A DNA stretch of 64,000 nucleotides from an uncultured Bacteriovoracaceae bacterium (GTDB taxonomy: Bacteria; Bdellovibrionota; UBA1018), in NCBI GenBank assembly GCA_964358645.1, contig CAYHPW010000005.1, positions 18,663-82,662 of the forward strand, given 5' to 3'. The notes below the pieces were generated by a model. It worked only from the letters and a program-made list of their open reading frames with translations, searched no databases and was not told where the DNA came from. A program made the translations under genes and the position numbers. This document shows positions 5,645 through 52,097 of the stretch, in pieces; position 1 is the first letter of the stretch; each line of letters begins with the position of its first letter.

Positions 5645-7132
5645 ATGGATGGAATTGAAGAAAAAAAGTGGTTTCTTTATATGGCGGATCACCACGAGGG
5701 CCCGTTTTCACTCGAGGAGATTAAAGGCAAATTAAGTGAAGGCCGAGCCTCAACTTTAAGTTATGTTTGGAAGGAAGGTATGCCTGATTGGCAAGTTATG
5801 TCAGATTTGACTGATTTTGAGGAAATCATCGCGTCAGTCACACCTCCGGAACCTGTTCTAATAGAGCCAGACGCAGCGCCACTGCTTGTGTCAAAACAAA
5901 AGGATAAAAAAGATATTGAATTCTGCATGCCTAATGAGCTGTTAGAGAATTTGGAAGGCTCTCAAGGGCGTTCAGCCGAGAAATCCGGGATAATTAGGCG
6001 ATTGCTTCCTGTTGTGGGAATAGTCTTGGTGCTGGGCATAGCAGCGATGGTGTATTTTTCTGGTTTGGGTCATGGTCTTGGAGAGAAACAAGGATTCATA
6101 TTGAAAGTGATAGATGTATTTCCTCTCGCAGGTAAATGGATTTCTCCTATTCCAGCCATAAATGATGTCAGTCAGGAAGAATATAACGCGCTTAGGGAAG
6201 CAGCACGCCTCAAAATAGATCAAGCTTCACCGCGGATCGGGATGGCTTTGTCAATGGCTAGTCCTGAAAAACCATTTTTCTATTTATCCGCCAATTTGCC
6301 TGATGGCGCTATTTTTGATGTCAGCATTAACGGTGTTGAAGGGACAATGGCTGGCCAAGTTGCATTTTCCTGGAAGGGTAAAATTATTCTGGCAGGACGG
6401 CTGGGAAAGTCTGAAGTGATAGCGCTTAATGATGGAAGACCTATACCACGTGGCGAATATTCATTATCCATAAAAGAGGCGGATAACCAGCTCCCCGCAG
6501 TTTCAACCGTATTGGAAACACTTAAGCCCGAAGCTTCCAGTGTCATCGATACCAATATTGCCACTGGCGATGCGGCAGGTAAGATATTTATTGAAAAAAC
6601 TTATTTTTTAGGCGGTGCTAAGGATGCTGAGTATGCCGCAAAATTAAAAGAATTTCATGAGTCCATGCGCGCCAAGGCAGCGCATGAGTTTGAAGAAATA
6701 AAGCAGTTTTTAGCCACCATTGAAAGCCAGCAAAACGAGTCAACCGTGGCATTCAATGATTTACGAAGGAAGGGTAATAAGGCCACTTTTGTGACAAAAG
6801 GCGCCTGGTTGAAATACCATGACAAATGGGAAGGGCTTGAAAACAAACTTAGAGAAGCTTTCCAACGCTGGACGCAAGACGTGCTGGAAAAAGAATATTT
6901 TTATGGAGTGCTTTATCTGATGCTACGTCAGGTCGGAGAGGCATTAGACAAACTTCACGATGTGCAACATTCATTTTTTACCAAACCGGTTGAACCGCAG
7001 GCTTTTGAGATTCAACTCGGTGAAGCATCGTCGCTAATGCAAAGCACTGTTATGGCGTTGAAAACAAAAATAGAACAAGCAGAGAAAATTCCTCCCACCA
7101 CAACTGGGATGCCTAGAAAAGAGGGCCTATGA
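5645..7132 (+). CDS. GYF_2 (DUF4339) domain bitopic membrane protein
   Basis: N-terminal WF...GPFS.EE.......VWKEGMPDW GYF_2 signature, one TM segment (LLPVVGIVLVLGIAAMVYF) and a large C-terminal region. ATG 5645 preferred over TTG 5630. Confidence 0.8.
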   Translation: MDGIEEKKWFLYMADHHEGPFSLEEIKGKLSEGRASTLSYVWKEGMPDWQVMSDLTDFEEIIASVTPPEPVLIEPDAAPLLVSKQKDKKDIEFCMPNELLENLEGSQGRSAEKSGIIRRLLPVVGIVLVLGIAAMVYFSGLGHGLGEKQGFILKVIDVFPLAGKWISPIPAINDVSQEEYNALREAARLKIDQASPRIGMALSMASPEKPFFYLSANLPDGAIFDVSINGVEGTMAGQVAFSWKGKIILAGRLGKSEVIALNDGRPIPRGEYSLSIKEADNQLPAVSTVLETLKPEASSVIDTNIATGDAAGKIFIEKTYFLGGAKDAEYAAKLKEFHESMRAKAAHEFEEIKQFLATIESQQNESTVAFNDLRRKGNKATFVTKGAWLKYHDKWEGLENKLREAFQRWTQDVLEKEYFYGVLYLMLRQVGEALDKLHDVQHSFFTKPVEPQAFEIQLGEASSLMQSTVMALKTKIEQAEKIPPTTTGMPRKEGL

Positions 7133-7542
7133 GCCAACCCGTAAAAACAATGGCTGAGCGCCGCCTCGCAAAGCGAAGACCAATACTAGAAACCTTTTCG
7201 ATTTTTGTGGTAGTGCCAAAAAAAGGCGTGCACAGATTGAAGCTTGGCGATCTGAGTGAGATAGGGATCGGCTTTGACTTGGATATAGAAGGAGAACCGC
7301 AGGCTGGTTTCCCCATGGCTAGTGGCGGTGAAATCGGTTTGCGCCTTTACCTGAATCAATCACTTTATCTGCCTCTTGTTGTTAAAGTCGTGCGGGTTGA
7401 GAAGCGCGAGGGATTCCGCCGTGTTGGAGCGACTTTTTCTGACGCCGGAGGCAAGGTGCATAACGCGCTCGTTTCGTTTTTACACATGCTTGACGATGTT
7501 ATTGATGTCGCAAAAATTGAAACGCAGCCGGCCAAGATATAG
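7129..7542 (+). CDS. PilZ domain protein (c-di-GMP receptor)
   Basis: RxxxR (RLAKR) and DxSxxG (DLSEIG) motifs. ATGA overlap with the upstream gene. Confidence 0.8.
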   Translation: MSQPVKTMAERRLAKRRPILETFSIFVVVPKKGVHRLKLGDLSEIGIGFDLDIEGEPQAGFPMASGGEIGLRLYLNQSLYLPLVVKVVRVEKREGFRRVGATFSDAGGKVHNALVSFLHMLDDVIDVAKIETQPAKI

Positions 7543-7557
7543 GAAAAATCTGCTTAT

Positions 7558-7584
7558 TTAGGGCCTCTCTCTTGCTTCCGATAA
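7558..7584 (+). promoter_or_regulatory. Putative FliA/sigma28-type promoter
   Basis: TTAGG-N14-TCCGATAA upstream of the AGGAGG Shine-Dalgarno and ATG 7609. Confidence 0.45.
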
Positions 7585-7608
7585 AGTCCTTAGCAGGAGG
7601 GCTTAAAA

Positions 7609-8094
7609 ATGTCGGAAGAGAGCGGGCGCGCAGGCCAATCAACGGAGTTAAAACAAGTAATTGACTTCAATGAAGCCCGTGCGCAGAAACTTGCAGAAAA
7701 AAGACGGAAAACTGAGCGTATTTTCTTCAAGCACCTTTTAAATGTTTATTCGGTGGTTGGTAAGTCGACCATGTATCCTATAGAGCTTATTGAAGTGAGC
7801 GAAGAAGGGTGTTCGTTTCAAGTTCCGTTCGAACCGAAGCATCCATGGCCGACCGACTTAGCAGATATCCCTCTAAGACTTTATTTCAGTCAGGACACTT
7901 ATCTTGAGATCATGGTTAAAATACAAAACTCAAAGCCATTCATTGACCGCAATGGAAGGTCCATCAGATTTGGTTGTTTGGTGGATAAAACGGTTGCTTC
8001 TTATGCAGCATACAGACAGTTTGTATTTTTTCTAAAGTCGTATGCTGAACACGCACGTAAAGACTTAGGCGACGTTACGGTATTTTACATTTAA
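7609..8094 (+). CDS. PilZ domain protein with variant second motif
   Basis: RKTER (RxxxR) and EVSEEG (E in place of D/N), a PilZ-like beta pattern ending RFGC, and a strong SD (AGGAGG). Confidence 0.7.
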   Translation: MSEESGRAGQSTELKQVIDFNEARAQKLAEKRRKTERIFFKHLLNVYSVVGKSTMYPIELIEVSEEGCSFQVPFEPKHPWPTDLADIPLRLYFSQDTYLEIMVKIQNSKPFIDRNGRSIRFGCLVDKTVASYAAYRQFVFFLKSYAEHARKDLGDVTVFYI

Positions 8095-8123
8095 TCCCGG
8101 CTCGCTGGAGATCCCATCTTTTA

Positions 8124-8165
8124 TTTTTGAGGTATTTTTAAGGTATTTAAAGGTCTTTTTAAGGC
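8124..8165. repeat. Four imperfect 10-11 bp tandem repeats (TTTT[T]AAGGT[A]-like)
   Basis: TTTTTGAGGTA / TTTTTAAGGTA / TTTAAAGGTC / TTTTTAAGGC, with AGG cores at 8130, 8141, 8151 and 8162. Confidence 0.6.
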
Positions 8166-8221
8166 TGTCCGCTGTTAATGCCTGCGATAAGTTAAAACAA
8201 TGGCGGCTGTATTTTTAAAAC

Positions 8222-8434
8222 TCAGGAGGTTCCTGTTATCTTGAAAATTTTACCTTTGATGGCGGATGAAACTTTGGTGCTTATCCCGTTTTCAGGAAGT
8301 GAGCCCACAAAAACATCTTCACCGATCAAAGAGAACACGAACCAGCGATTACCCATTTTTTGATAAAGGACCTCAATAGTATCGTTTACTGCTGGTCCAA
8401 GCTTGGTTTCATTCTGTGGCAGTTTTGTATCCAT
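8222..8434 (-). CDS. Small hypothetical protein
   Basis: 70-aa ORF filling the gap, with a beta-rich core (EVLYQKMGNRWFVFSLIGEDVFVG) and a FliA-like motif just upstream. Confidence 0.6.
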   Translation of the reverse strand: MDTKLPQNETKLGPAVNDTIEVLYQKMGNRWFVFSLIGEDVFVGSLPENGISTKVSSAIKGKIFKITGTS

Positions 8435-8441
8435 GTAGACA

Positions 8442-8469
8442 TATTCGGAGTGTTCGACTTATATCTTTA
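8442..8469 (-). promoter_or_regulatory. Putative FliA/sigma28-type promoter
   Basis: Minus strand reads TAAAG-N15-TCCGAATA, ending 7 nt before ATG 8434. Confidence 0.4.
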
Positions 8470-8484
8470 TATGGGCAAATAATG

Positions 8485-9465
8485 CTAGGTTTTGATGGAG
8501 TCGTATGCGGTGACTTTATTGCGCCCAGATTGTTTGGAATAATATAGGGCCTTATCAGCAGCTTCTAGTACTCCTTCTGGGGTTTCCGCATCTTTTGGGT
8601 AGCCAGCGATGCCTATGCTTAATGAAACTCTTCCGAGGGGCTGGTACTCGCTGAATGGAAATTTACGTTCCGCTATGACGTAGCGTATGCGTTCTGCGAG
8701 CGAAAAAGCCTCTTTTGCCGATGTTTCAGGGCACAGAATTACGAATTCTTCACCGCCGTATCTTGCTGCGAGGTCGGTGTCGCGGCAATTTGTAGCTATA
8801 ATATTTGAAATTTGCCTCAATAGGCCATCCCCTGCGGGATGCCCATTTCGATCGTTGTAATGCTTGAAGTTGTCCGCATCAAAGAAAATCACGGAATATT
8901 CGCTGTTGTAGCGGGCCGCGCGAGCATGTTCAGCTTGTATGTGTCCTTTAAAATGCCTGAAATTAAAAAGCTTTGTGAGTTCATCCGTAGTGGAAAGCGC
9001 TTCTAGTTTCTTATTTAGGATTTCTAGTTCTGCTATGTAACCACGGATTCTTTCCTGCGTTTCGCGTTCCTGGGTGATATCCCGCAAAATAGCCTGTATT
9101 GCTTCGTTGCCGTCGCTTAGTTTCATCATGCATGCAACGACTCGCACATAGATATTTCTTCCATCAGGGCATTGCCATTGTGTTTCGTATTCACGCGGAT
9201 AATAGCGTCGTTTGGCTATCCGCATGCTTTTTTCAAATTCAGGCCCTTGTTCCTTGATCACCCATGTAAAGATTGAGGAACCCAAAATAGAGTCCTTGGG
9301 AATCCCTAGCAGTCTTTCGGCGGAATCATTTGCATCAAGGATAGTCATGGATTCAGGATTTATCAGCACTACTGTGTCAAGCATGCGCTCAAAAAGATCA
9401 GCATAATTTGCCAGCGTGGAAAGTCTGGTTATCTCTTCTGTGCGCGGTGATTCGCCTTCACTCAT
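8485..9465 (-). CDS. PAS-GGDEF diguanylate cyclase
   Basis: N-terminal PAS domain, coiled linker, TDELT, DADNFKHYND..GH..GD, I-site RDTD and active site RYGGEEF. Confidence 0.95.
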   Translation of the reverse strand: MSEGESPRTEEITRLSTLANYADLFERMLDTVVLINPESMTILDANDSAERLLGIPKDSILGSSIFTWVIKEQGPEFEKSMRIAKRRYYPREYETQWQCPDGRNIYVRVVACMMKLSDGNEAIQAILRDITQERETQERIRGYIAELEILNKKLEALSTTDELTKLFNFRHFKGHIQAEHARAARYNSEYSVIFFDADNFKHYNDRNGHPAGDGLLRQISNIIATNCRDTDLAARYGGEEFVILCPETSAKEAFSLAERIRYVIAERKFPFSEYQPLGRVSLSIGIAGYPKDAETPEGVLEAADKALYYSKQSGRNKVTAYDSIKT

Positions 9466-9526: not shown

Positions 9527-9536
9527 TTTTCTTTAT

Positions 9537-9624
9537 GGAGAGATGGCCGAGTTGGTCGAAGGCACTCCCTTGCTAAGGGAGCAGTGGGTAAAACCGCTCG
9601 TGAGTTCGAATCTCACTCTCTCCG
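9537..9624 (+). tRNA. tRNA-Ser(GCT)
   Basis: Acceptor stem GGAGAGA/TCTCTCC with discriminator G, D-loop containing TGG, anticodon arm CTCCC-TTGCTAA-GGGAG, long variable arm, T-arm GTGAG-TTCGAAT-CTCAC. CCA is not encoded. Confidence 0.97.
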
Positions 9625-9783
9625 TACGTATAAAACTTCCAGGATCTTCACCATTAACAGGGGCAGGGATCTGTGCAGAAAGTGCTACCTTATTGACCTA
9701 TAAGTAAAAACGTCACATGATTATAAAATATGTGCCAAGTAACCTTGACGCACATTGTTTCTAAAAAATGATAAGATTCACAT

Positions 9784-10656
9784 ATGCAATCAAAAATTAT
9801 CCCCCCGACTGAAGTCGTAACAAATTTCAAGGGAGCATTTTTAGAAGTATGTTACCGTGGATATTCAGCTCTTGGTAGAACCCCACATAAAGTATCTGAT
9901 CAGGCCAGGAAGTGGCATTACGAACCAAGCTATCCTCCGTGTTACTATGCACAAGCCCGGTACCGTTTTTTAAAAACACTGGCTATTGCTAAAAGTATGC
10001 ACTTCAAAAGTGTTTTAGAAGTGGCAGCTGGCGGAGGCTTTAATGGTATTTGCCTGCATGAACCCGGCAGGCGCACTGTCCTTAACGACATGCGTTTTCT
10101 AGATGAAGAGATTAAAGCTTGGCCCAACAGCGAGGACATAGAAATAATTATTGGCAATCTATTAGAATTGGATCCAAAAAAAATAGGACACTTTGATTTA
10201 GTGATGGCATGCGAAGTTATTGAACACGTGGCACACGGTGACGAATTAATCGAGCACCTTAGAAAATTTTTAAATCCTGCCGGAAAACTATTAATAACAA
10301 CCCCCAACGGAGCTTACTTTAGATCTAAACTATCAACTTATTCGGAAGTGAGCAATTTTTCAGAGCTTGAGAAACGCCAGTTTAAACCAGACGCTGATGG
10401 GCACCTTTATCTATACACGCCTGAGGAAATTACGGAGCTTCTTAAAAAGACAGGTTTTCATGACATACAAGTAGACCTATCAATCACACCATGGCTTTCT
10501 GGGCATATGGGAATGCGATTACTGCCGTCTTCTAGATCTCTGACGTCGTTTTATTTTAAGTTAGACAAACTTTCTATGAAACTAGGGTTTTCGGTTCAGC
10601 GCAAATTATGCACACAAATGATAATAGTGGCCAGCCAGACAAAAGGTTGTAGATGA
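9784..10656 (+). CDS. Class I SAM-dependent methyltransferase
   Basis: Motif I variant VLEVAAGGG, FDLVMACEVIEHV, LNPAGKLLITTPN. Confidence 0.9.
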   Translation: MQSKIIPPTEVVTNFKGAFLEVCYRGYSALGRTPHKVSDQARKWHYEPSYPPCYYAQARYRFLKTLAIAKSMHFKSVLEVAAGGGFNGICLHEPGRRTVLNDMRFLDEEIKAWPNSEDIEIIIGNLLELDPKKIGHFDLVMACEVIEHVAHGDELIEHLRKFLNPAGKLLITTPNGAYFRSKLSTYSEVSNFSELEKRQFKPDADGHLYLYTPEEITELLKKTGFHDIQVDLSITPWLSGHMGMRLLPSSRSLTSFYFKLDKLSMKLGFSVQRKLCTQMIIVASQTKGCR

Positions 10657-11837
10657 TTTTCAATGAGGTGGGTTACTACTGTTTTTTCCTTTTACCCTCC
10701 ATCCTCTTATTCCACTTAAGCAAATATTCATTAAGGCCATGGATTATAACCATTACTGGCGTACTTTTTTTTATATATTTTGGAGGGATTCATTTTGGTG
10801 GATTGTTCGGATCTTTAGCAGTCATTATCCTGCTGTGGGAGATGTTGACTTCGCGTTTTTATAAACCCAAGTCGCTATGGAGTATTTTTGGTGTTGTGCA
10901 GGCGATTATAGTTCTTTGTTACTTTAAATATTCAGGTTTTTTCATAACAATATATAACGATCTCTTAAACGTATTTAAATTAAGTGACACCCAAAGATTT
11001 TCAAACCCAATCCTGCCTTTAGGGATAAGTTTTTTTACGTTTGAATTCATACATTTTGCAAGTGACCGTTATAAAGGCAAGATAGGGAAAACCACATTAG
11101 GTGAGTATGGTGCTTTTATCTTTTTTTTCCCAACCATGGTAGCGGGACCGATTAAACGGTTCGAGGAATTTATACCTAAGCTAAGATGCGCATGCGTAAA
11201 CCTAAAACTTATCAACCGTGGCATAACTCGCATCCTGGTGGGGTTGGCAAAAAAGCATGCATTAGCTGATACATTTGGACTTATTTCAAACAGCCTCAAT
11301 ACCGATGCTCTGTATCAGGCTGATGGTATTACAATAATTTTTTGGATATTTGCCTATGGGATGAAGATTTATTTTGATTTTTCCGGTTATTCTGACATAG
11401 CGATCGGTAGCGCGTATCTTTTTGGTATCCCTGTTCCAGAAAACTTTAACTGGCCATATTTAAGCCGAAATATTGCTGAATTCTGGCGCAGGTGGCACAT
11501 CTCGCTGGGTAGATGGATTTTTGATTATGTTTATGTAGCAGTCGGTGGTTCACTGAGATCACCTATCAGAACGGGTTTCAATCTTATAATGGCCTTCGCT
11601 GTGTCTGGTATTTGGCATGGAGCCGCGTATAATTTTATAGCATGGGGTTTGTGGCATGGGATCATGATGGTTATTTATCGTTTCTGGAGTTACATTTCAT
11701 TGCGGTTAAACGTGCGGTTACCAGCACCTGTAAGCATAATGATTACATTTATTGGTGTTAATCTTGGCTGGGGCTTGTTCTGTATGGACATTAAACGAGC
11801 TGTTTTCTCATTTTCTAAGATATTAGCTATATTATGA
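10653..11837 (+). CDS. MBOAT O-acyltransferase (DltB/AlgI/PatA family, short DltB-like form)
   Basis: LPLGISFFTF, FFPTMVAGPI, YFDFSGYSD, FWRRWHISL and catalytic GIWHG. 394 aa, with no C-terminal FIYxxF tail. Confidence 0.95.
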   Translation: MIFNEVGYYCFFLLPSILLFHLSKYSLRPWIITITGVLFFIYFGGIHFGGLFGSLAVIILLWEMLTSRFYKPKSLWSIFGVVQAIIVLCYFKYSGFFITIYNDLLNVFKLSDTQRFSNPILPLGISFFTFEFIHFASDRYKGKIGKTTLGEYGAFIFFFPTMVAGPIKRFEEFIPKLRCACVNLKLINRGITRILVGLAKKHALADTFGLISNSLNTDALYQADGITIIFWIFAYGMKIYFDFSGYSDIAIGSAYLFGIPVPENFNWPYLSRNIAEFWRRWHISLGRWIFDYVYVAVGGSLRSPIRTGFNLIMAFAVSGIWHGAAYNFIAWGLWHGIMMVIYRFWSYISLRLNVRLPAPVSIMITFIGVNLGWGLFCMDIKRAVFSFSKILAIL

Positions 11838-12016
11838 AAAGACTGAATAAACTTAAAACGACTTTAGAAATAATGAATGGCGCCGAAGACTTCCCGCAAC
11901 GCTACGAGAAATACATATGGATACCCATTATTAGAGGGATATATTGGACGGTACTTATTTTTATAGTCCTGGCATTTATAGGCAGGAGCACAAAATTTAT
12001 ATACATTGACTTCTGA
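11834..12016 (+). CDS. DltX-like small membrane peptide
   Basis: 60 aa with one TM helix and C-terminal FIYIDF. Start overlaps the MBOAT stop (ATGA) and stop overlaps the next start (TGATG). Confidence 0.8.
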   Translation: MKRLNKLKTTLEIMNGAEDFPQRYEKYIWIPIIRGIYWTVLIFIVLAFIGRSTKFIYIDF

Positions 12017-13047
12017 TGCGACAAGAAACACGACACCTTATCATTAGTTTTGTTATTTTTCTGTCTGGTATAATCTTTTTAGAAAGATGTCTGGCATGGA
12101 AGATACCACTTCACTTCATTCCAACTGTTAAAATGCACAAAGCGTTGGAATATGGCGATAATTGTATAGTATTTAGCGGTGATTCCAGGATGGCGTCCGG
12201 TCTGGATCTATCTATAATGAAGAATACGCTAAATAGTCATAATAATTCTACATGTCTTATTGATCTATCTATCGGCGGAGTAAACCTTACCGGACAGGTT
12301 GTAGCCCTTCGTGAATACTTGAGACATGGCAGAAAACCAAAACTGATCGTGCTTGGTATATCAATCGATAATTTATTATCGGATGATATGCATGTCGATG
12401 AATCCTCATTCGTTGGCAGCCGTGCCATTATACTGCTATGGTCGCACTTAAAAGATGTTTACATTCACTATCCAAATTTCCCTAAAGAAGGCCGGATAAA
12501 TGGCATTAAATTCCTTATTATGAGAACTAATGCATTAACAACTTTTGGTTCAATAATATGGCTTAAAATCCAAAGATTCCAAAATTACATCACCGGGAAG
12601 TCGACGGGTGAGACCAACCGTTTTGGTGCGGTTGAAGATATGAAATTGCTGGCTAATGATTTTTTTATCCAGTTACAACGTTTGATCAGTACTCAAAAAC
12701 TTGGGCATGATACATGGAGTGAACACAGGTGGTATTCACTACTCAAACAACTCCTTGTAGAGCGAGACATACCACTGGCATTAGTTGAAGTTCCAATATT
12801 CCCTCCGTATGCAAGTCAAATTGAAGCCATATCGCAATCTTCAGCAATTAAGGATTGGATTGCGCGACGCCTGCCAAAATGCCGACTAGCTGAACCAAAA
12901 TGTATAGAAAGCACTTTGATCAATCTAAATTCCGTTCCAGGCATTAATGCTGCTTTTTTTCCAGACAAAATACACTTGTCCACCGACGGGGCAAAAATCT
13001 TCTCAAAGCATTTGGGAGAAAAATTGTCTCTGATACTGCAAAAATAA
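12016..13047 (+). CDS. SGNH-fold periplasmic acyltransferase (DltD/AlgJ/PatB-like)
   Basis: N-terminal TM anchor, block I FSGDSR, block II LSIGG and C-terminal DxxH (PDKIHL). Confidence 0.75.
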   Translation: MRQETRHLIISFVIFLSGIIFLERCLAWKIPLHFIPTVKMHKALEYGDNCIVFSGDSRMASGLDLSIMKNTLNSHNNSTCLIDLSIGGVNLTGQVVALREYLRHGRKPKLIVLGISIDNLLSDDMHVDESSFVGSRAIILLWSHLKDVYIHYPNFPKEGRINGIKFLIMRTNALTTFGSIIWLKIQRFQNYITGKSTGETNRFGAVEDMKLLANDFFIQLQRLISTQKLGHDTWSEHRWYSLLKQLLVERDIPLALVEVPIFPPYASQIEAISQSSAIKDWIARRLPKCRLAEPKCIESTLINLNSVPGINAAFFPDKIHLSTDGAKIFSKHLGEKLSLILQK

Positions 13048-13056
13048 CGGCACAGT

Positions 13057-14043
13057 TTACGGACTCTTTTTCATCAGATTGAGGAACTCTGAGTCAGTTG
13101 AAAAAATCAGCTGTGTGTCTTTTTTAAAGGCCTTTTTATATGCATCCATCGTGCGTGTGAACTCAAAAAACTTACGGTCCTGATTCAGCGCGCGCGCATA
13201 TATGATTATGGCTTCTGCCTCGGCTTTTCCGCGGATCTGCTGCGCCTGTCGGTAAGCCTCGGATGTGATCCTCTGCAGATCTCGGCTAGTCTTGCCTTGG
13301 ATCTTGGCTTGCTCTCCTTTTCCGATGGAGCGGATCTTTTCGGCAATTCGCTTTCGCTCGGAGATCATGCGTTCATATACTTTTTTCTCGACACTAGCTT
13401 CGTATGAGATCCGTCGCAGCTGAACATCTATGATTGAAATTCCGAATTGGGCGAGTTCTTCAGCGGCCTTTTTTGCGATAATCCCGCTTAGGTTCTCACG
13501 TCCTGTCTGGATTTTCTCGATCTCTCCGGTTATCTCCTCTTCCTCTGCAACTAAAATTTCTCCTTTAGCGAGCTTCTGCTTCGTATCTTCCCGCTTCGTC
13601 TGAAGATAATCGAGAATAAGATTCGTGTTCCTGACTGCCTCCACTAGATTATGGTTCGAAATCGTATCACGCGTGATCGCATCAAGGATCGCATCCAGCC
13701 TGGCTTTCGCGCCTCGTTCATTCTGGACGGTTTGAATAAACTTGAGGGCATCATCAATCCTCCAGCGGGCAGTAGTATCAACAATGATGTATTTCTTGTC
13801 CCTGGTGGGGATCTGATTTGGATAGCCATCCCAGGAGAGGATTCTTTTATCAACATACTGGACAGCCTGGATAAAGGGCATCTTGAAGTGCATGCCTGCT
13901 TCCGTAACTGGTTGGCCAATTGGTCGGCCAAACTGTGTGATGACTGCCTGGCGGCCCTCGGGCACAAGGAATGCCGAGGAAAGAGTCGCTGCGATGATAA
14001 GAATTACTGTAAGCCCAAATAGTGCTATACGATTAAGTTTCAT
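13057..14043 (-). CDS. hflC: FtsH protease modulator HflC
   Basis: SPFH domain, GMHFKMPFIQ, VYERMISER...A..IRS.G, FFEFTRTMDAY. Coupled to hflK. Confidence 0.95.
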   Translation of the reverse strand: MKLNRIALFGLTVILIIAATLSSAFLVPEGRQAVITQFGRPIGQPVTEAGMHFKMPFIQAVQYVDKRILSWDGYPNQIPTRDKKYIIVDTTARWRIDDALKFIQTVQNERGAKARLDAILDAITRDTISNHNLVEAVRNTNLILDYLQTKREDTKQKLAKGEILVAEEEEITGEIEKIQTGRENLSGIIAKKAAEELAQFGISIIDVQLRRISYEASVEKKVYERMISERKRIAEKIRSIGKGEQAKIQGKTSRDLQRITSEAYRQAQQIRGKAEAEAIIIYARALNQDRKFFEFTRTMDAYKKAFKKDTQLIFSTDSEFLNLMKKSP

Positions 14044-18695: not shown

Positions 18696-19760
18696 TTATA
18701 CAAGATCGGGTCGATGTTTTTTTACTTCATCAACAAGCATCTTAATCTGCTGCGCTCGTCGTTTATCAGCTACAAGAATAGCTTCACCAGCCTGTACGAT
18801 AATAAGATCTTTCACGCCTAATAGGGCCACAAGCTTTCCTGGGGCATCAATAATATTTTGCGCGCTTTCAATTGAGATAACTTCGCCATTTGTGACTACG
18901 TTCTCGCCATTGTAAGCGCCAAGAACGTCTGCCATGCTTTCAAGGGATAGCCAGCTTCCCAAGTCATCCCATCCGCAGTCCAGTGGGAAGGCAACAACGT
19001 TATCGGCTTTTTCCATGACTCCATAATCTATGGAAGTAGCTGTAAGCAGCGGGTACGCCACATCGACATCTCCACCGGAGGCTTCCCATGTTTTTTTCAT
19101 CTCTGGCATGAAGCAATCAAATGCCGCTAGAATAACCTCCGCCCTCCAAACAAACATCCCGCCATTCCATAAATAATTGCCGCTTTTAAGGAAATTTTTG
19201 GCCATCATTTCATTTGGTTTTTCTATAAACCGCTCGACCCTGTAACATCCTGAAGACCCAATATTTTTGCTGATTCTAAGATAACCAAAACCCGTCTCAG
19301 GCCGTGATGGCCTTACCCCGAGGGTGACGAGGTCATCATGTTCAGAGGCCCATGCAACTGCCAGCTTTACGGTGTCACAAAATCGATCCTCGGCGGCTAT
19401 GTAATGATCTGATGGCATTACGAGCATGACGGCATTAGGAGCCTGCTCGGCGACAAAACGAGCCGCCCAGTAAATACAAGGGGCGGTGTTCCTGCCGGCC
19501 GGTTCTTCCAAAATCATGGCGCTTGCCGTTTCCTGGGAAACAGCATCTCTAAGAGCCCTAGTCGTGACAATGATATTATTAGAAGAAGGTATCAGATCTT
19601 CAAACCGCCTCAAGGTTCTGGCCAACAACGACACCGGTATACCGTCGCTAGATTCACCAAAAGAAAGAAGCTGTTTAGGCCTAGCTGATACGCTTTTTGG
19701 CCAAAAACGTGTTCCACTACCACCGGCCATTATTATCAAATAGCTGTTCTTGCTGCCCAT
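18696..19760 (-). CDS. manC: Mannose-1-phosphate guanylyltransferase (GMP domain only)
   Basis: IMAGGSGTRFWP.S...PKQ, EPAGRNTAP, PSDH, ETGFGY, FIEKP, WNGGMF, SIDYGVMEK, WDDLGSW. Confidence 0.93.
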   Translation of the reverse strand: MGSKNSYLIIMAGGSGTRFWPKSVSARPKQLLSFGESSDGIPVSLLARTLRRFEDLIPSSNNIIVTTRALRDAVSQETASAMILEEPAGRNTAPCIYWAARFVAEQAPNAVMLVMPSDHYIAAEDRFCDTVKLAVAWASEHDDLVTLGVRPSRPETGFGYLRISKNIGSSGCYRVERFIEKPNEMMAKNFLKSGNYLWNGGMFVWRAEVILAAFDCFMPEMKKTWEASGGDVDVAYPLLTATSIDYGVMEKADNVVAFPLDCGWDDLGSWLSLESMADVLGAYNGENVVTNGEVISIESAQNIIDAPGKLVALLGVKDLIIVQAGEAILVADKRRAQQIKMLVDEVKKHRPDLV

Positions 19761-19773
19761 TCAATCGAGTTCG

Positions 19774-20166
19774 CTAAGGCATCGACGTGCCTGTGCGTCC
19801 ATAACTGTCTTCTATACGAATTACATCATCGAGGTGTGGTGTAGAAACCTCGAACACGTCACAATCCTCCAAAGCTATCATCCTATGCTTACGGCCCGGG
19901 AAAATGTGAAAAGCCTCCCCGGAAAAAAGCGGCATTTCTTTCATCACTCCCTTTTCATCTTCGGTCACAAACATCATTTTCCCTGTCTTTAGAAAAACAG
20001 TTTCTTCTTTGATCCTGTGATATTGCAATGATAGTTTGTGCCCGCGCCGTATATGCAGAATTTTACCGATGTAGTGGTTTGTTTTCGCCCAAATTAGCTC
20101 ATAACCCCAAGGTTTTTCAATGCGTTCAATGGATTGTTTGCCAATGCCACAACCAGCTTCAGTCAT
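19774..20166 (-). CDS. Cupin protein (type II mannose-6-phosphate isomerase C-terminal-like)
   Basis: EKPWGYE, LSLQYHRIKEET, HRM, EVST..LDDVIRIEDSYGR. Confidence 0.85.
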   Translation of the reverse strand: MTEAGCGIGKQSIERIEKPWGYELIWAKTNHYIGKILHIRRGHKLSLQYHRIKEETVFLKTGKMMFVTEDEKGVMKEMPLFSGEAFHIFPGRKHRMIALEDCDVFEVSTPHLDDVIRIEDSYGRTGTSMP

Positions 20167-20854
20167 TATCCCCGCCGATTTTGGTTATTATAAGAAACGT
20201 ATCAATAATGCCGGTCGCCTTATAGCTCTGTCCGGCACGTTCAGCTAATTCACGTGAGGAGAAGTTACCTGCAAACACGCGGTAGCGTTTCTTGTTTTCT
20301 CCGATATCCACCTCTGAATAGGAAGCCTTAAGCCCGATCGATTCCTTCAGCTCAAATACCTGCTGACGCGCCTCCTCCTCGGATAAATACGACCCTATTT
20401 GTAGCGAGAAATATCTGCCTTGTCTTGATGCGGAATTCTCTATGTCGGAGGCAGGGTCCTGTTTGGTCATTTTTTTAGCAAGTTTTTGAGAACGCGTATC
20501 TTTAGGAAGATCAACTTGCCTTGAAACATCCAGCTTGAGGCCGATTTTAGATACCTCATCCCTAGTCGAGCGCTCCAGAATTTCATCAGCTACTTGGTTG
20601 GCGTACCTTGCCTGCTCGTTTAGCTCTTGTTCGGGAGGTACTTGCTTATCCACGACTTGGGCAATGCCTTCAGCATTGTTAAGCGGCTTTTTAGCACCAA
20701 CCTCGCTACTTGGAAGCGATACTGCCTGTGTGGCGGAATTCTTCGCAAAATGAACTCCGAACGTAAACGCAAAAATAACCACCACAACGCCTATAAGAAC
20801 AAGGAGCCGTATCTCCTTGCCATCATAAATGAATAATCGATGTTTTAATCCCAC
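20159..20854 (-). CDS. SPOR domain membrane protein
   Basis: N-terminal TM, linker and C-terminal SPOR domain (FSLQIGSY...YRVFAGNFSSRELA). Confidence 0.85.
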   Translation of the reverse strand: MGLKHRLFIYDGKEIRLLVLIGVVVVIFAFTFGVHFAKNSATQAVSLPSSEVGAKKPLNNAEGIAQVVDKQVPPEQELNEQARYANQVADEILERSTRDEVSKIGLKLDVSRQVDLPKDTRSQKLAKKMTKQDPASDIENSASRQGRYFSLQIGSYLSEEEARQQVFELKESIGLKASYSEVDIGENKKRYRVFAGNFSSRELAERAGQSYKATGIIDTFLIITKIGGDND

Positions 20855-20897
20855 GGCAAGAATAATAGCTTCGCAAGCCCCCCTCTGTCAATGTAAG

Positions 20898-20926
20898 TGC
20901 CGATTAATCAGCTCTTAAAATCGGCA
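20898..20926. promoter_or_regulatory. Inverted repeat, putative operator/activator site between divergent genes
   Basis: TGCCGATT-N13-AATCGGCA, a perfect 8-bp inverted repeat. Confidence 0.45.
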
Positions 20927-21035
20927 TAAAAATCCGGATACCGGCGTTACTAGGCTATTACGGTGGCCCCTGTTGGTTTCAAACTTTCATAGCCAGTTTG
21001 CCAAACAATAACTTTCAAAACAAAAGGAGCTTTTC

Positions 21036-21218
21036 ATGAAAAGACCAAATGGATATTTTTTTATAAATAACAACGGCCAGGGCCTAACAGAGTATATTGC
21101 GCTTCTGCTACTGATATCGGTCATTTCCATAGCCGCCGTAAAAGCGCTGGGTGGCACAATAAAGTCAAAACTTCAGGAGGCCAGAAACCAGATCAACCAG
21201 GAAATATCCATATATTAA
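21036..21218 (+). CDS. flp: Flp/Tad major pilin
   Basis: 60 aa with class III signal G|QGLTEY, a hydrophobic helix and LG tail. SD AAGGAG. Confidence 0.9.
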   Translation: MKRPNGYFFINNNGQGLTEYIALLLLISVISIAAVKALGGTIKSKLQEARNQINQEISIY

Positions 21219-21231
21219 AACCGAGGCGGAT

Positions 21232-21525
21232 TTGTATCCTAAACATAACAACGGTCAGGTACTTATTGAATTCGTGACAAGCGTTATATTTCTTTCATGC
21301 ATATTAGCATTGGTGTTTTCACTAATGGTCGCGCAGTGGTGGCGGGCACGGTGTGTATTCTTAACGTTCGAAAAGACCCATACAACACTTGTAGGTGGAA
21401 TATCAGAATACATCAGCTTCCCTTTAGAAATAACGGACACCGGGACTTCCATCAAGGGTGAATCAAGATGCATGCGCGATCCGAATGTAATTGAGTCAGT
21501 AGAGCTGCAGAAATTGGAGCCTTAG
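21232..21525 (+). CDS. TadE-like minor pilin
   Basis: NNG|QVLIEF followed by a hydrophobic helix. TTG start after GAGG. Confidence 0.7.
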   Translation: MYPKHNNGQVLIEFVTSVIFLSCILALVFSLMVAQWWRARCVFLTFEKTHTTLVGGISEYISFPLEITDTGTSIKGESRCMRDPNVIESVELQKLEP

Positions 21526-21531
21526 GTTCAT

Positions 21532-22143
21532 ATGATCAGACTTAATAAGCAATCCGGCTCGCTTCATCTTCCGATGGCATTATGTCTTATCGCGGTCGTG
21601 TCCATAGGTTTCGGCACATGGGCCTTCCTGAGGCGATGGCGATATCTGGCTGAACTTCAATTGCATCTAGATCGGTGTGTTGGAAATATAACGCTAAAGT
21701 TACGTGACACATTAACTGATATAGAATCTACGAACCGGATGATCGGCAAACTGAGGCTTGCCATAGCAGCCTCATCCCTTCTTCCCGAGGGGCGGGTTAC
21801 ACTTCAAACCGCACTAACCGCATTAGCAGCTAAACAGGATATGGCAATAATATACTGGGAAAGCTTGAGGATCCACTGGTCGTTAAACAGTGCGTGTGGC
21901 AAAAAGGGCGGCATAAGCTGGCCGCCACCAAGCCTTGATCTGACTAGGCCTCCGCCCGATGTACTAGGACAGCAGAAATTATACTGGCAAAGAGGGATCC
22001 CTAATGTGTTTTTTATCCAAGCTTATCGTTCCCCAAGGGCAGCGGCAGCTACAGTCGAGTATTTCAAGACCGGTACAAGCGCGACGAGGTGGGTTGCTGC
22101 TTGGACCATCCCACAAAAAACAATGTGGGCAAATATTTATTGA
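21532..22143 (+). CDS. TadG-like pseudopilin
   Basis: QSG|SLHLPMAL (no E+5), a hydrophobic helix and LQ..LD pattern, inside the pilin cluster. Confidence 0.55.
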   Translation: MIRLNKQSGSLHLPMALCLIAVVSIGFGTWAFLRRWRYLAELQLHLDRCVGNITLKLRDTLTDIESTNRMIGKLRLAIAASSLLPEGRVTLQTALTALAAKQDMAIIYWESLRIHWSLNSACGKKGGISWPPPSLDLTRPPPDVLGQQKLYWQRGIPNVFFIQAYRSPRAAAATVEYFKTGTSATRWVAAWTIPQKTMWANIY

Positions 22144-22288
22144 GATGTGCATATGGGCGACAATTATTTCAATCGTTTCTATGGGTATTTGTCTTGGGTT
22201 AAGGGAAGAATACTCACGCTACAAAAAAGCTATATCCTCGGCCAGATATATGTTCTCAGCAACGGAAAAGCAAAAGGCGCATTTTTAG
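22004..22288 (+). CDS. Short TadE-like minor pilin; true start uncertain (possibly TTG 22094)
   Basis: KKQCG|QIFIEM followed by a hydrophobic helix (CIWATIISIVSMGICLGL). Overlaps both neighbours. Confidence 0.5.
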   Translation: MCFLSKLIVPQGQRQLQSSISRPVQARRGGLLLGPSHKKQCGQIFIEMCIWATIISIVSMGICLGLREEYSRYKKAISSARYMFSATEKQKAHF

Positions 22289-22755
22289 TTCTCATCGCAA
22301 TTTGTCTTGCTGCGGTTGCAAATAGGATAGCACGTAACGAGGCGTTTAGAGAGCTGGAGAAAAACCATTTTCCGTCACCCCTTATATGGGATTATGCGCT
22401 GACAGCGAGAGGATTTCACAAAGTGACAGAAAACCTTATGCAACGGGTATACAGGAGTTTGCCTCTCACCATTAGTAGTGAAGGAACAGTATGGTCTAGC
22501 AAAGACCTTCAGTGGTTCGCTGTATATGACCGCAATATCAACCAGCAGAACCCTGTCACAATTTATTGTAGATCATGTAAAAATCATTCAAAAGAGATAC
22601 AGACGCTCGTATATTGGGAGCCGCACGGTTCGGGTTGGGCTGCCCTTGAAACGATCTCTATCAGCCTTGATAGAGATCTATCCAATATTACGACAAATTC
22701 AAAATCATCTATTAACTCGGTATTAGCAAGAGATCCCCGCGAAATACGTTATTGA
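22147..22755 (+). CDS. Hypothetical membrane-anchored protein; start uncertain
   Basis: Only long ORF covering 22290-22755, with a hydrophobic segment AFLVLIAICLAAVA and a CRSC motif. Confidence 0.45.
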   Translation: MHMGDNYFNRFYGYLSWVKGRILTLQKSYILGQIYVLSNGKAKGAFLVLIAICLAAVANRIARNEAFRELEKNHFPSPLIWDYALTARGFHKVTENLMQRVYRSLPLTISSEGTVWSSKDLQWFAVYDRNINQQNPVTIYCRSCKNHSKEIQTLVYWEPHGSGWAALETISISLDRDLSNITTNSKSSINSVLARDPREIRY

Positions 22756-22789
22756 CTTTTACTAAGCTTCAAGGCTTTATTTTTTCATA

Positions 22790-23734
22790 ATGAAACAAGA
22801 TCTAGCTTCTATCCTTGCTGTTGGCTCACTGGCCTTTGACACCATTGAAACACCTGCCGGAAAAGCAGAATCAGTATTGGGGGGATCAGTTAACTATTTC
22901 TCTATAGCGGCATCATTTTATTCCCCGGTCAAAGTTGTGGGCGTGGTGGGTGAGGACTTCCCGAAATCCCACCTTGAGTGGTTATCCAGCCGCAAAATCG
23001 ATGTAAGTGGCGTGAAAATAAATCCAGGCAGGACATTCCACTGGGTTGGCGCTTATGACCACAACCTTAATGAAGCAAAAACTCTTTCAACAGCTCTGAA
23101 TGTGTTTGAGCACTTCGATCCAAAGCTTTCCCAATCACACAAGTCAACGCCATATCTTTTTTTGGCAAATATAGATCCTGTTTTGCAGCAAAAAGTATTG
23201 GATCAAATGAGCGCATCACGACTGGTGGCGTGTGACAGTATGAACTTCTGGATAACCGGGAAACCAGAAGAGCTTAAAAAAACATTAAAACGTGTTGACG
23301 TGCTTTCGATTAACGAAGGAGAAGCTTATCTTCTATCAGGACAGCGCAACCTTACAAAAGCTGCCAAGTTCATACGCGAACTTGGCCCGTCAATAATAAT
23401 CATCAAACGTGGTGAATATGGGGCGAACCTGTTTACACCTGCTGGAACTTTCCTGGCTCCGGCTTTCCCCGTATTATCCGTTGTTGATCCTACGGGAGCT
23501 GGTGACAGTTTTGCTGGCGCCTTCATGGGCTACCTTGCTGAAGCCGGTATTCACCGTGATATGGCCCACAAGAGTCCTCAAGAGTTTGATAACTTATTAA
23601 GACGCGCAGTATTAGCTGGTTGCGTGATGGCGAGTTTTACAGTGGAGGATTTTAGTATCCACAGGTTGCTTCGCCTAGACAACAGTGAGCTTGTGACAAG
23701 GCAGCGCATGCTCATGAAAATGATCTCGATTTAA
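22790..23734 (+). CDS. PfkB family carbohydrate/nucleoside kinase
   Basis: LGGS, INEGEA, IKRGEYGA and the DPTGAGDSFAG signature. Confidence 0.93.
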   Translation: MKQDLASILAVGSLAFDTIETPAGKAESVLGGSVNYFSIAASFYSPVKVVGVVGEDFPKSHLEWLSSRKIDVSGVKINPGRTFHWVGAYDHNLNEAKTLSTALNVFEHFDPKLSQSHKSTPYLFLANIDPVLQQKVLDQMSASRLVACDSMNFWITGKPEELKKTLKRVDVLSINEGEAYLLSGQRNLTKAAKFIRELGPSIIIIKRGEYGANLFTPAGTFLAPAFPVLSVVDPTGAGDSFAGAFMGYLAEAGIHRDMAHKSPQEFDNLLRRAVLAGCVMASFTVEDFSIHRLLRLDNSELVTRQRMLMKMISI

Positions 23735-24911
23735 CTGATGACTTTGCTAAAAACGACCAGCCGGAACTCACAGTTTCCAAAAACAGAGTTGGGTCTTTGC
23801 CGACTTCAATAATCATTTTCTTGATAGTCTCCACCAATTCACGCTGAAAACGCTCGCGCGAAAACAACCGTGCCCGGTCCCTTATTTCTTCATGAGAGAA
23901 AACAATCTTGCCTTCTTCGTACTTACTGACAGCTTCAATCAACCCATCGGCGGTTTGACGGTCAAAAAATATCCCTGTCTTATCGGTAACTGTTTCCAGT
24001 AAACCGCCCTGGGCATATGCAATCACGGGGGCTCCGGCCGCCATGGCTTCAAGGGGTGCTATGCCAAAATCCTCCACTCCCGGAAATATGAATGCTTTAC
24101 ATTTGGAATACAAATCCGCCACAGCTTCGTCAGACAAGTTTCCAAGAAATTCAACCGTTGGGCCGGCATTTTTCTGTAATTTCTCCTCATTTTGACCGGA
24201 GCCGACAATAATAAGAGGGAGCCTCATTTTATTAAACGCCTCAATTGCTATGTCTATGCGCTTATAAGGCGCCATAGCTCCGACCATCAGGTAATAGCGT
24301 CCCGGATGCCGCTGTCTTTTAGCAAAACGCTCAAAATCGACGAATGGATAAATAACTTCAGCCCGGCGGCCATAAGCGCGCTCGATCTGACCGGCGATGA
24401 ATTTACTGTTGGCGATCAGCTTATCAACCCTGTCTTTGCCACTAACTAGCCTGTCCCAATTCTGTAACCTGTGACGTATCAGCTTTGCGACGATTCTTAC
24501 TGGCAATGACGCATGTCCAGGAGCGAAGTAATCGTCATAACGGTCCCACATATATCGCATGGGCGCATGTACATAGCTGATATGTAGTGCGTCTGTCGGT
24601 TTACGAATCCCTTTTGCAACACAGTGTGATGAAGAAATCACCAGATCGAAGCCCTTTAAGTCAAAGCGCTCAATGCAAAAAGGCATTACAGGCAAGAAAG
24701 AACGGTAACGTTTTTCAATGGCTGGTACCCGTTGAAGAATACTTGTATGACGTTTTAAAGCGGTTAACACTGGCGAAATTCTGCCAGGTACATAAATCAG
24801 TGTGAATAATTCCGCACGCGGGAACAACTCTGCCATTGCCTCCAAGACATGCTCTCCGCCACGCATACCCGTAAGCCAATCATGCACGATTGCTATACGG
24901 TAAGCATTCAC
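23712..24911 (-). CDS. GT4 glycosyltransferase
   Basis: VHDWLTGMRGGE, YKRID, EDFGIAPLEAMAAG. Confidence 0.93.
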   Translation of the reverse strand: MNAYRIAIVHDWLTGMRGGEHVLEAMAELFPRAELFTLIYVPGRISPVLTALKRHTSILQRVPAIEKRYRSFLPVMPFCIERFDLKGFDLVISSSHCVAKGIRKPTDALHISYVHAPMRYMWDRYDDYFAPGHASLPVRIVAKLIRHRLQNWDRLVSGKDRVDKLIANSKFIAGQIERAYGRRAEVIYPFVDFERFAKRQRHPGRYYLMVGAMAPYKRIDIAIEAFNKMRLPLIIVGSGQNEEKLQKNAGPTVEFLGNLSDEAVADLYSKCKAFIFPGVEDFGIAPLEAMAAGAPVIAYAQGGLLETVTDKTGIFFDRQTADGLIEAVSKYEEGKIVFSHEEIRDRARLFSRERFQRELVETIKKMIIEVGKDPTLFLETVSSGWSFLAKSSVKSRSFS

Positions 24912-25900: not shown

Positions 25901-25902
25901 TA

Positions 25903-50887: not shown

Positions 50888-51055
50888 ACGATGTATTTGA
50901 CGTCTTGGTTTCATCATTCAGTGCTGGCATGAGGACTTTGTTTTAAGTTTAAAAACTGTCATAATTTTCTACCGTTGCTTTTTGGGTAAACTCGACTAAA
51001 TATACAAGTGAAAGTACCCTTACAGAAAAGGCTTCCTCAAATTAAGGAGATAGAG

Positions 51056-51559: not shown

Positions 51560-51565
51560 TACCTT

Positions 51566-52042: not shown

Positions 52043-52097
52043 ATCTTGTTTCCCTTGGTACTTGCCCCAATTTAGGCGGAGTGACATATTAAAAGTT

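Follow-up and report, generated by a model that had tools for sequence, protein, structure and literature searches.

The window analysed here is a 64,000-nucleotide stretch of the genome of an uncultured Bacteriovoracaceae bacterium (assembly GCA_964358645.1, contig CAYHPW010000005.1, positions 18,663 to 82,662 of the forward strand), and the subject of this work is a four-gene operon at window positions 9784-13047, three genes of which probably encode the parts of a trans-membrane acyl relay. The open reading frame (ORF) list and the sequence place all four genes on the + strand, chained by stop/start overlaps. Gene 1 (9784..10656) encodes a class I S-adenosylmethionine (SAM)-dependent methyltransferase of 290 aa, assigned through Pfam Methyltransf_23, and gene 2 (10653..11837) a short DltB-like MBOAT of 394 aa, assigned through Pfam MBOAT. 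Gene 3 (11834..12016) encodes a 60-aa single-helix microprotein ending KFIYIDF, which was recognised from an alignment and from locus counts, and gene 4 (12016..13047) a transmembrane (TM)-anchored protein of 343 aa whose periplasmic domain has a predicted SGNH fold, provisionally called DltD-like from its alignment and predicted structure. Genes 1 and 2 share an ATGA at 10653-10656, genes 2 and 3 an ATGA at 11834-11837, and genes 3 and 4 a TGATG at 12014-12018. An earlier reading made from the letters of the window alone (the sequence-only reading) had joined the four genes in this way, and its coordinates and overlaps were borne out.

The short MBOAT and the microprotein

The product of gene 2 matched the Pfam MBOAT model (PF03062) over residues 139-345 with 99.4 bits against a cut-off of 27 (E 3.2e-28). 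Its C-terminus reads FSKILAIL and carries no FxYxxF tail; the absence of a C-terminal tyrosine motif from the 394-aa protein, as first noticed, can be read directly from the translation. The GIWHG segment contains His322 and aligns with the WHG of DltB, in which the WHG histidine is catalytic. His322, His282 and His335 were invariant among 42 MBOAT homologues, as was the I-x-N-E of the conserved N-terminus MIFNE, and the start codon and short length of gene 2 are therefore considered genuine. Against the NCBIfam DltB equivalog model (TIGR04091) the protein scored 176.7 bits, below the cut-off of 375, and covered model positions 32-376 of 380. The nearest solved structures were those of DltB (8jem and 6bug, E ~2e-32), with HHAT next at 7e-5. 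Judged by these comparisons of sequence, gene 2 is DltB-like in architecture and is not a DltB.

A word-indexed search with the MBOAT returned 7999 scored relatives. The best 120 were nearly all 384-427 aa long and 52-63% identical to the query, and AlgI was the automatic annotation of most of them. The loci of MBOAT relatives were fetched from genomes (80 loci) and metagenomes (80 loci), and the counts below refer to these.

The gene 3 product begins with a basic stretch and an LE-x-x-x-G motif, continues with a single TM helix and ends in KFIYIDF, which contains Tyr57. Its single hydrophobic stretch covers approximately residues 29-51, and the chain ends in F55-I-Y57-I-D-F60 followed by the stop codon. 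With the FxYxxF hexapeptide defined as in PMC12148441, the protein has both features of a DltX-type acyl-shuttle microprotein, namely one TM helix and FxYxxF at the very end. The 60-aa single-TM ORF ending FIYIDF is present as had been claimed.

The position of this small gene was found to be highly recurrent. A tblastn search with the 60-aa protein, to which no motif filter was applied, gave matches in 18 of the 80 genome loci and 39 of the 80 metagenome loci, always just 3' of the MBOAT. A motif scan, in which a small ORF at most 900 nt downstream of the MBOAT had to end in hydrophobic-x-Tyr-x-x-aromatic, detected such an ORF in 45 of the 80 loci from genomes and in 54 of 77 from metagenomes; in one further genome locus and three further metagenome loci the MBOAT runs off the contig. 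In a controlled re-count the motif ORF was present in 97 of 144 loci; the reverse strand of the same stretch had none in 144 loci, and the upstream 940 nt had one in 119. The arrangement of MBOAT and motif-ending ORF is far beyond chance. A whole-locus scan, run without a control, located a motif ORF elsewhere in 31 of the 61 loci that had no downstream copy, which brings the microprotein to about 130 of the 160 loci overall. The remaining 30 were mostly short contigs and include three fused forms (L075, L080 and L164).

Conservation at the C-terminus was seen at the level of the peptide and not of the DNA, since 27 distinct 21-mers encode KFIYIDF across the 44 loci that have exactly this peptide. 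In the alignment of the microprotein family (A2, 70 sequences), F55, Y57 and F60 were invariant and D59 was present in at least 90%; the tyrosine and the last aromatic residue were partly imposed by the filter used to collect the sequences, which speaks against leaning on their invariance, while K54, I56 and D59 were not imposed. The long-form microproteins further share an N-terminal segment of the type LE-Y-LGG-x-R-D (LEIMNGAED in the window), and the start of gene 3 at 11834 is thus favoured over the internal Met14.

Searching with a microprotein profile gave matches to 1383 clusters at E <= 0.001 among 3193 candidates. With at least 1383 matching database clusters, it follows that gene callers already predict the microprotein. 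Among the 120 clusters listed, the name given by the source was always "hypothetical protein" and no Pfam domain was on record, and exact look-ups gave the same name in named genomes such as Archangium, Granulicella and Gemmata. The sole exception in naming was a 34-aa member from Tumebacillus, which UniRef labels "D-Ala-teichoic acid biosynthesis protein". The Pfam DltX model weakly matched 6 of the 70 family members (best E 0.0024), and a profile search of the PDB with the microprotein gave chance-level matches only. The family extends over Planctomycetota, Myxococcota, Acidobacteriota, Verrucomicrobiota, Bacillota and others, and over bins labelled DPANN archaea and Candidatus Yanofskybacteria. 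Lack of conservation of the 60-aa ORF was a doubt raised at the outset, and the ORF proved to be conserved beside short MBOATs across many phyla.

Several layouts differ from that of the window. The microprotein follows the SGNH gene in Paenibacillus loci, where it ends EFIYMNF, and in some loci of Verrucomicrobiota, Pseudomonadota and Acidobacteriota, where it ends PFIYVAF, PFIYVSF or PFIYQVF. A divergent microprotein ending EF[IV]YIDF was observed upstream in the bins labelled DPANN archaea and Candidatus Yanofskybacteria; in L039, L043, L048, L049, L058, L078 and L141-L153, whose bins are labelled Nanoarchaeia, Woesearchaeota or Yanofskybacteria, it precedes a DltD-like gene and the MBOAT. 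Between L056, which has an archaeal label, and L058, labelled as a bacterial candidate phylum, the MBOATs were almost identical, with branch lengths of 0 and 0.003, which suggests a binning problem or a very recent transfer. In the Opitutae-type loci L081, L082, L086 and L088-L092 the short MBOAT is followed by a protein of about 400 aa (the 'C4' family) with no Pfam match, and no motif-ending small ORF was found in these loci. In the related L077, L079, L087 and L172 a microprotein ending PFIYQVF, PFIYVAF or PFIYVSF comes after the C4 gene. Within the taxonomic family of the window's organism, L186 (2054-6014, G293:C2) encodes a short MBOAT of 387 aa, preceded by an overlapping 436-aa protein with a terminal DxxH-like motif and with a 487-aa multi-pass membrane protein after it; among the listed ORFs of 30 aa or more in this stretch, no small one ends in the motif.

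The SGNH partner and the proposed relay

The translation of gene 4 contains G55-D56-S57 and D317-x-x-H320, as the GDS and DxxH motifs of the sequence-only reading had indicated. We take GDS to be Block I and DxxH to be Block V of the SGNH fold, and conserved glycines would fit blocks II and III. A word-indexed search with gene 4 returned one relative only, and a metagenome scan with the single protein returned none. An exhaustive HMMER search of 1.84 billion representatives gave 81 relatives at E <= 0.001; the full-length relatives are 306-356 aa long, and for many of them the alignment already begins within residues 1-10 of the query. These alignments favour the TGATG-coupled start at 12016 over the public gene call (P0001), a 276-aa protein beginning at Met68 that leaves out window 12016-12219 and with it the membrane helix and Ser57. 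In the family alignment (A1, 43 sequences), G55, S57, G134, D317 and H320 were invariant and G114 was present in at least 90%; S57, D317 and H320 are the candidates for catalysis. The residue after G134 is Asn in the family consensus and Ser in the window's protein.

The structure of gene 4 was predicted with AlphaFold2 from the A1 alignment (predicted local distance difference test, pLDDT, 93.3; predicted template modelling score, pTM, 0.91); a single-sequence prediction had a pLDDT of 41.8 and was discarded. In the model, residues 3-33 form an N-terminal helix, after which comes an alpha/beta domain. In a Foldseek search with this model, DltD chains occupied 9 of the top 10 places (E 5.6e-6 to 7e-5), and PatB was also listed. 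VIA-align placed the model on the CE3 acetyl esterase 5b5l with a Z of 13.3 and a root-mean-square deviation of 3.5 A over 172 residues; TesA followed with a Z of about 13, PatB reached 11.2, and many SGNH chains lay at Z 11-13. The SGNH fold of the predicted model is firm.

Gene 4 is also connected to the partners of other short MBOATs. An hhalign comparison of the A1 family with A4, the DltD-like partner family of other short MBOATs, gave a probability of 98.5% (E 3.4e-15, 284 columns). Pfam DltD matched 4 of the 16 A4 members, the best at 25.4 bits against a cut-off of 22.7 and the only one above the gathering score, and 1 of the 43 A1 members (E 0.076). Local hidden Markov models (HMMs) located a gene 4-family ORF in 58 of 67 loci with a long microprotein and an A4-family ORF in 27 of 32 loci with a short one; the type of microprotein therefore tracks the type of SGNH partner.

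We consider it probable that genes 2-4 encode a three-part trans-membrane MBOAT-SGNH acyl relay whose shuttle tyrosine sits on a separate microprotein. The sequence-only reading had proposed a split relay of the DltB/DltX/DltD type with neither adenylation enzyme nor carrier, and this proposal is supported by the conserved triad, the SGNH partner and the searches with Dlt models. From the gene structure, the conservation of the triad, the SGNH fold with its invariant residues and the failure to find DltA and DltC (below), we infer every chemical step, together with donor, acceptor and methyltransferase role, as follows. The MBOAT, via His322, would move an acyl group from a cytoplasmic donor, likely an acyl-CoA, onto Tyr57 of the microprotein. 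The single helix of the microprotein would put the KFIYIDF tail on the periplasmic face, from where the acyl-tyrosine tail would swing to the membrane-anchored SGNH protein and acylate Ser57. A hydroxyl on an exported glycan, which could be O-antigen, capsule, exopolysaccharide (EPS) or possibly peptidoglycan, may then receive the acyl group from the SGNH protein. Gene 1 would be co-transcribed and translationally coupled with the relay genes, and most likely methylates the same glycan or its precursor before export.

The acyl-tyrosine shuttle has only recently been established, for DltB/DltX/DltD and for PatA/PatB. According to PMC12148441, the D-Ala carried by DltC is moved by DltB onto the invariant Tyr of DltX, which hands it on to the Ser of DltD; PatA uses acetyl-CoA to acetylate the Tyr at its own C-terminus, and PatB accepts an acetylated FIYANF peptide as donor. 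The operon resembles the Dlt system of Bacillota (dltXABCD) in having a short MBOAT that lacks the tail, a one-helix FxYxxF microprotein and an anchored SGNH protein, all as separate proteins, as well as in DltB being the nearest solved relative of gene 2 and DltD the top Foldseek match of gene 4. It differs from Dlt in that DltA and DltC were not found here and the MBOAT scores below half of the DltB cut-off. At 60 aa the microprotein exceeds DltX in length, has a conserved N-terminal segment of the LE-x-LGG type and is encoded after the MBOAT, whereas in Dlt it comes first in the operon; unlike the Dlt proteins, it and gene 4 have no Pfam DltX or DltD match. As a diderm, the host would be expected to lack teichoic acid. 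The PatA/PatB, AlgI/AlgJ/AlgX and WssH/WssI systems are like the operon in their diderm hosts, probable acyl-CoA donor, absence of a carrier, FxYxxF motif and SGNH partner; in the PatA, AlgI and WssH type, however, two additional helices carry the motif as part of the MBOAT chain, and here a gene of its own encodes it. The locus combines the parts of the Dlt relay with, apparently, the donor logic of PatA/PatB.

A number of observations weigh against the relay, or against its likeness to Dlt. Gene 3 had no match to Pfam DltX (PF12459) even at E <= 10 and none to the Pfam and NCBIfam models at E <= 0.01. Gene 4 likewise matched no Pfam or NCBIfam model at E <= 0.01, and Pfam DltD (PF04914) did not match it at E <= 1. 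The Foldseek TMq to DltD was only 0.36-0.40, and no DltD chain appeared among the 50 VIA-align rows shown, in which plain SGNH esterases ranked higher. The label 'DltD-like' therefore rests on the Foldseek ranking and on a chain of profile similarity, and a specific kinship of gene 4 with DltD is suggestive only. The modelled SGNH fold with its Ser/Asp/His set fits a hydrolase equally well as a transferase. Lastly, the operon is bounded by a tRNA-Ser gene on one side and the convergent hflC/hflK on the other, and no glycan-synthesis gene adjoins it.

The methyltransferase, the acyl donor and competing explanations

Gene 1 matched Methyltransf_23 in Pfam with an E of 9.2e-13, and its nearest Atlas clusters were all generic class I methyltransferases. 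The sequence-only reading had given this enzyme a special role and had raised the ideas of an 'unusual acyl group' and a 'dual methyl/acyl decoration', both of which are speculation. A competing explanation along the same lines is that the methyltransferase is an integral fourth component, which makes the donor or methylates the same sugar to leave a coupled methyl-plus-acyl mark. Its stop/start overlap with the MBOAT gene in the window speaks for such a component. So do the methyltransferases found near the module in 5 of 10 well-flanked loci with the closest gene 4 homologues, which were chosen by the author and Pfam-scanned for neighbours: L015 and L099 each have a Methyltransf_23, L096 has two, in L094 an FkbM-type enzyme lies 154 nt upstream and a Methyltransf_23 on the downstream side, and L101 has a CmcI-type rhamnosyl O-methyltransferase. 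Glycan genes flank the module in L015, L017, L094, L096, L099 and L101, among them GT2, GT1/GT4, DegT, an ABC-transporter ATPase, an epimerase and AT3.

Position and strand of these methyltransferases vary, however, and the link to gene 1 itself was rarely seen. A tblastn search for a gene 1 homologue was positive in none of the 80 genome loci and 1 of the 80 metagenome loci; this sole homologue, in L096, is 31.5% identical and lies convergently just after gene 4. Of the window-type loci that are 6 kb or longer, 5 of 42 had a match to a class I methyltransferase HMM; the figure for the other short-MBOAT loci was 11 of 67, which amounts to no enrichment. The MBOAT fragment G404:C264, from the same taxonomic family, has a divergent ThyX-like gene upstream instead of a methyltransferase. 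With a homologue in 1 of 160 loci, no enrichment and no methyltransferase upstream of the nearest in-family MBOAT copy, the special role was not borne out, and we regard an integral fourth component as doubtful. Methyltransferases do adjoin the module in a few loci, so that the pairing is not confined to the window as had been feared. Across the loci compared, the methyltransferase is an accessory of this lineage and not a defining part of the module; it fits with use of the module in glycan-decoration clusters. The gene 1 translation has no visible hydrophobic helix; lacking a membrane or export signal, this cytoplasmic enzyme cannot act in the compartment of the relay's last step.

The identity of the acyl donor was approached through the loading enzymes of Dlt. 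The organism's own genome assembly is 95% complete, in 166 contigs. In it the best match to the DltA model (TIGR01734) scored 94.2 bits against a cut-off of 559.85, and the DltC model (TIGR01688) gave no match at E <= 0.001, while the control genomes of B. subtilis and L. lactis did match; DltA and DltC, first noted as lacking from the operon, were thus not found in the rest of this assembly either. An acyl-CoA, for instance acetyl-CoA, is the most likely donor, given that neither a dedicated ligase nor a carrier was found and that PatA uses acetyl-CoA. That this is the sole basis tells against the acyl-CoA step, as does the presence of generic AMP-binding enzymes in the genome, one of them in the window at 57504-59345.

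Such enzymes leave room for a true Dlt-like, carrier-fed pathway, in which an amino acid or other acid would be loaded by an adenylating enzyme and an acyl or peptidyl carrier protein from elsewhere in the genome, and the MBOAT would receive it from the carrier in the way that DltB does from DltC. The MBOAT is DltB-like in its length and closest solved relative, several generic AMP-binding enzymes are available, and a carrier protein adjoins other modules of short MBOAT and microprotein, namely the Paenibacillus loci with PP-binding, KAS-III-like and radical-SAM genes. We nevertheless find this pathway unlikely, since the 95%-complete genome holds no DltA-model match near the cut-off and no DltC match, and no carrier or ligase gene lies in the operon or among the Pfam-scanned neighbours in the 10 well-flanked related loci.

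The Paenibacillus loci themselves (L050, L051, L053, L054, L057, L060-L062, L065, L066, L069 and L070) have a short MBOAT, a DltD-like gene and then the EFIYMNF microprotein. In L050-type loci a PP-binding carrier, a radical-SAM/SPASM enzyme and a KAS-III-like enzyme precede the MBOAT. This looks like a carrier-fed variant, whichever acyl group it handles.

The acyl-CoA-fed relay has also to be set against the opposite chemistry, in which the module removes or edits acyl groups, gene 4 is a periplasmic esterase, and the MBOAT and the microprotein have some other or recycling role. The highest VIA-align Z values (~13) were to acetyl esterases and thioesterases, and Lipase_GDSL_2, a GDSL lipase/acylhydrolase model, matched 24 of the 43 members of the gene 4 family. 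DltD and PatB, however, are themselves SGNH-fold transferases, and gene 4 accompanies the long microprotein in most loci that have one, as counted above. The gene order and the coupling with an MBOAT and a Tyr-motif peptide also match two characterised transferase relays (PMC12148441). On balance an esterase module appears quite improbable.

The remaining question is whether the split between MBOAT and microprotein is genuine. A second MBOAT in the same genome (contig C30, L009 1063-3592) is fused: it is 471 aa long, ends ISFIYFQF, and the next gene encodes a 367-aa protein that matches DltD and AlgX weakly. With this fused MBOAT and SGNH-like partner beside the window's operon, the organism appears to have a split relay as well as a fused one. 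Residues 1-343 are the only part of the C30 protein to which the window's MBOAT aligns (38% identity), and the microprotein profile aligns to the last 32 residues of the C30 protein (440-471, helix and motif) with an hhalign E of 0.0035 and a probability of 9%, weak as expected for the length. A FastTree of 92 MBOATs was built, with Shimodaira-Hasegawa (SH)-like support only and several long branches. No DltB above the cut-off was found in 5 Paenibacillaceae/Tumebacillus genomes, and the tree is thus without a true DltB. Eleven fused forms, including C30 and those of eight genomes of the window's own taxonomic family, make up one clade (SH-like 100). The window's MBOAT falls in a clade of 24 rows (97), of which the other 23 comprise 21 with a long microprotein, one with a short one (L018) and one contig that is too short (L027). 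The rows nearest to the window's MBOAT are from Planctomycetota and Myxococcota.

The idea that the 60-aa ORF is the C-terminus of an AlgI/PatA-type MBOAT broken off by a frameshift or assembly error, to which the similar combined length (394 + 60 aa against the fused 471 aa) and the alignment to the C30 helix and motif could lend colour, was rejected and deserves practically no credence, because a separate microprotein gene, which begins at a codon of its own and either shares 4 nt with the MBOAT gene or follows it after a short gap, is seen again in 97 of 144 loci drawn from many phyla, thousands of MBOAT homologues share an end point at about 390-400 aa, and the fused forms stand in a separate clade while that of the window is nearly all split with a long microprotein. 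Homologous MBOATs that run continuously through this region, a possibility the sequence-only reading had allowed for, are therefore not the rule in the clade of the window's MBOAT.

Genomic setting, origin and wider family

A tRNA-Ser (GCT) gene predicted by ARAGORN lies at 9536..9625 on the + strand, 158 nt 5' of the operon; it stands outside the relay and is a possible integration site. In the gap between this tRNA and gene 1, a consensus scan identified two sigma-70-like promoter matches on the + strand (9693-9721 and 9745-9772), each agreeing at 9 of 12 positions; the region holds 16 such matches compared with 11.7 +/- 3.3 in shuffles, which makes them a weak indication. The scan also identified a terminator-like hairpin with a T-run at 13095..13123 (+ strand), 48 nt past the stop codon of gene 4 in the convergent gap before hflC. 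Terminator-like sites numbered 4 against 3.0 +/- 2.0 in shuffles, which is likewise weak.

Directly 5' of the tRNA and the operon, window 7129-9465 contains cyclic-di-GMP signalling genes: a PilZ protein (29.3 bits), a weak second PilZ (19.4 bits, below the cut-off) and an opposite-strand PAS-GGDEF cyclase. Exopolysaccharide production is often under cyclic-di-GMP control. A glycan-synthesis region is located 6-15 kb 3' of the operon at window 18699-28243 and could supply an acceptor polymer; it encodes a mannose-1-phosphate guanylyltransferase-like protein, a GT1, a GDP-mannose-dehydratase-like epimerase, a GT4 and a Wzy_C/O-antigen-ligase-domain protein. Of the outer-membrane genes that had been proposed, the Pfam scan recovered this last protein (26996-28243) and a Pal-like OmpA-domain protein, with a TPR protein two ORFs later (51008-52853), both in support of an outer-membrane setting; a FadL-like gene was not seen in the scan of the window at E <= 1e-7, and no further search for FadL was made. 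Three ORFs of 421-469 aa at 39599-42119 and 54832-56238 have no Pfam match at E <= 0.01 or a sub-threshold RelA_SpoT match.

The base composition and distribution of the operon suggest that it arrived from outside the lineage. Its GC content is 0.36-0.42, compared with 0.44-0.49 in both flanks. Among 401 genomes of the phylum, gene 4 was detected in the window's own and in no other. Within the taxonomic family, an MBOAT was detected at E <= 1e-20 in 16 of 61 genomes, all at most 40% identical to that of the window except the G404:C264 fragment, which is 58% identical over 97 aa at a contig end and is the sole close in-family copy; MBOAT relatives from other phyla reach 63% identity. In the tree, the window's MBOAT groups with loci of Planctomycetota, Myxococcota and Acidobacteriota (SH-like 97), and the in-family MBOATs are placed elsewhere. 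On the other side, membrane proteins are often AT-rich, which weakens the argument from GC content, and the long branches of the FastTree count against the argument from the tree. HflC orthologues were found in 3 of 20 relatives, and in the stretches fetched neither the tRNA-Ser, the GGDEF gene nor the operon lay beside them; as synteny around hflKC is not conserved, no clean empty insertion site is shown. Horizontal acquisition of the operon next to tRNA-Ser is thus likely, on this comparison of sequences, and not proven.

The recurrence of the motif-ending microprotein beside short MBOATs points to a large family of split relays. In this it differs from the 2025 account, which limits DltX-like microproteins to Dlt and says that non-Dlt MBOAT/SGNH pathways have none (PMC12148441). 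A literature search by titles and abstracts found no paper describing such microproteins outside Dlt. We suggest, tentatively and at less than even confidence, that a free Tyr-shuttle microprotein may be a general partner of short MBOATs across Bacteria and the DPANN-labelled bins, that Dlt may be one specialised, carrier-fed branch of this family, and that the window may hold its minimal form, a portable and horizontally mobile cassette that, together with the coupled methyltransferase, decorates the exported glycan of its host with methyl and acyl groups and needs no host-specific loading enzymes.

If the family of split relays is confirmed, the annotation of MBOAT operons would change, as it is easy to overlook the microprotein and to misplace the start of the SGNH gene. 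The module would also offer a small three-gene system for the study of trans-membrane acyl transfer, and surface glycans of little-studied bacteria may carry unrecognised acyl decorations. In the case of the window's organism, the operon suggests a recently acquired way to modify its envelope.

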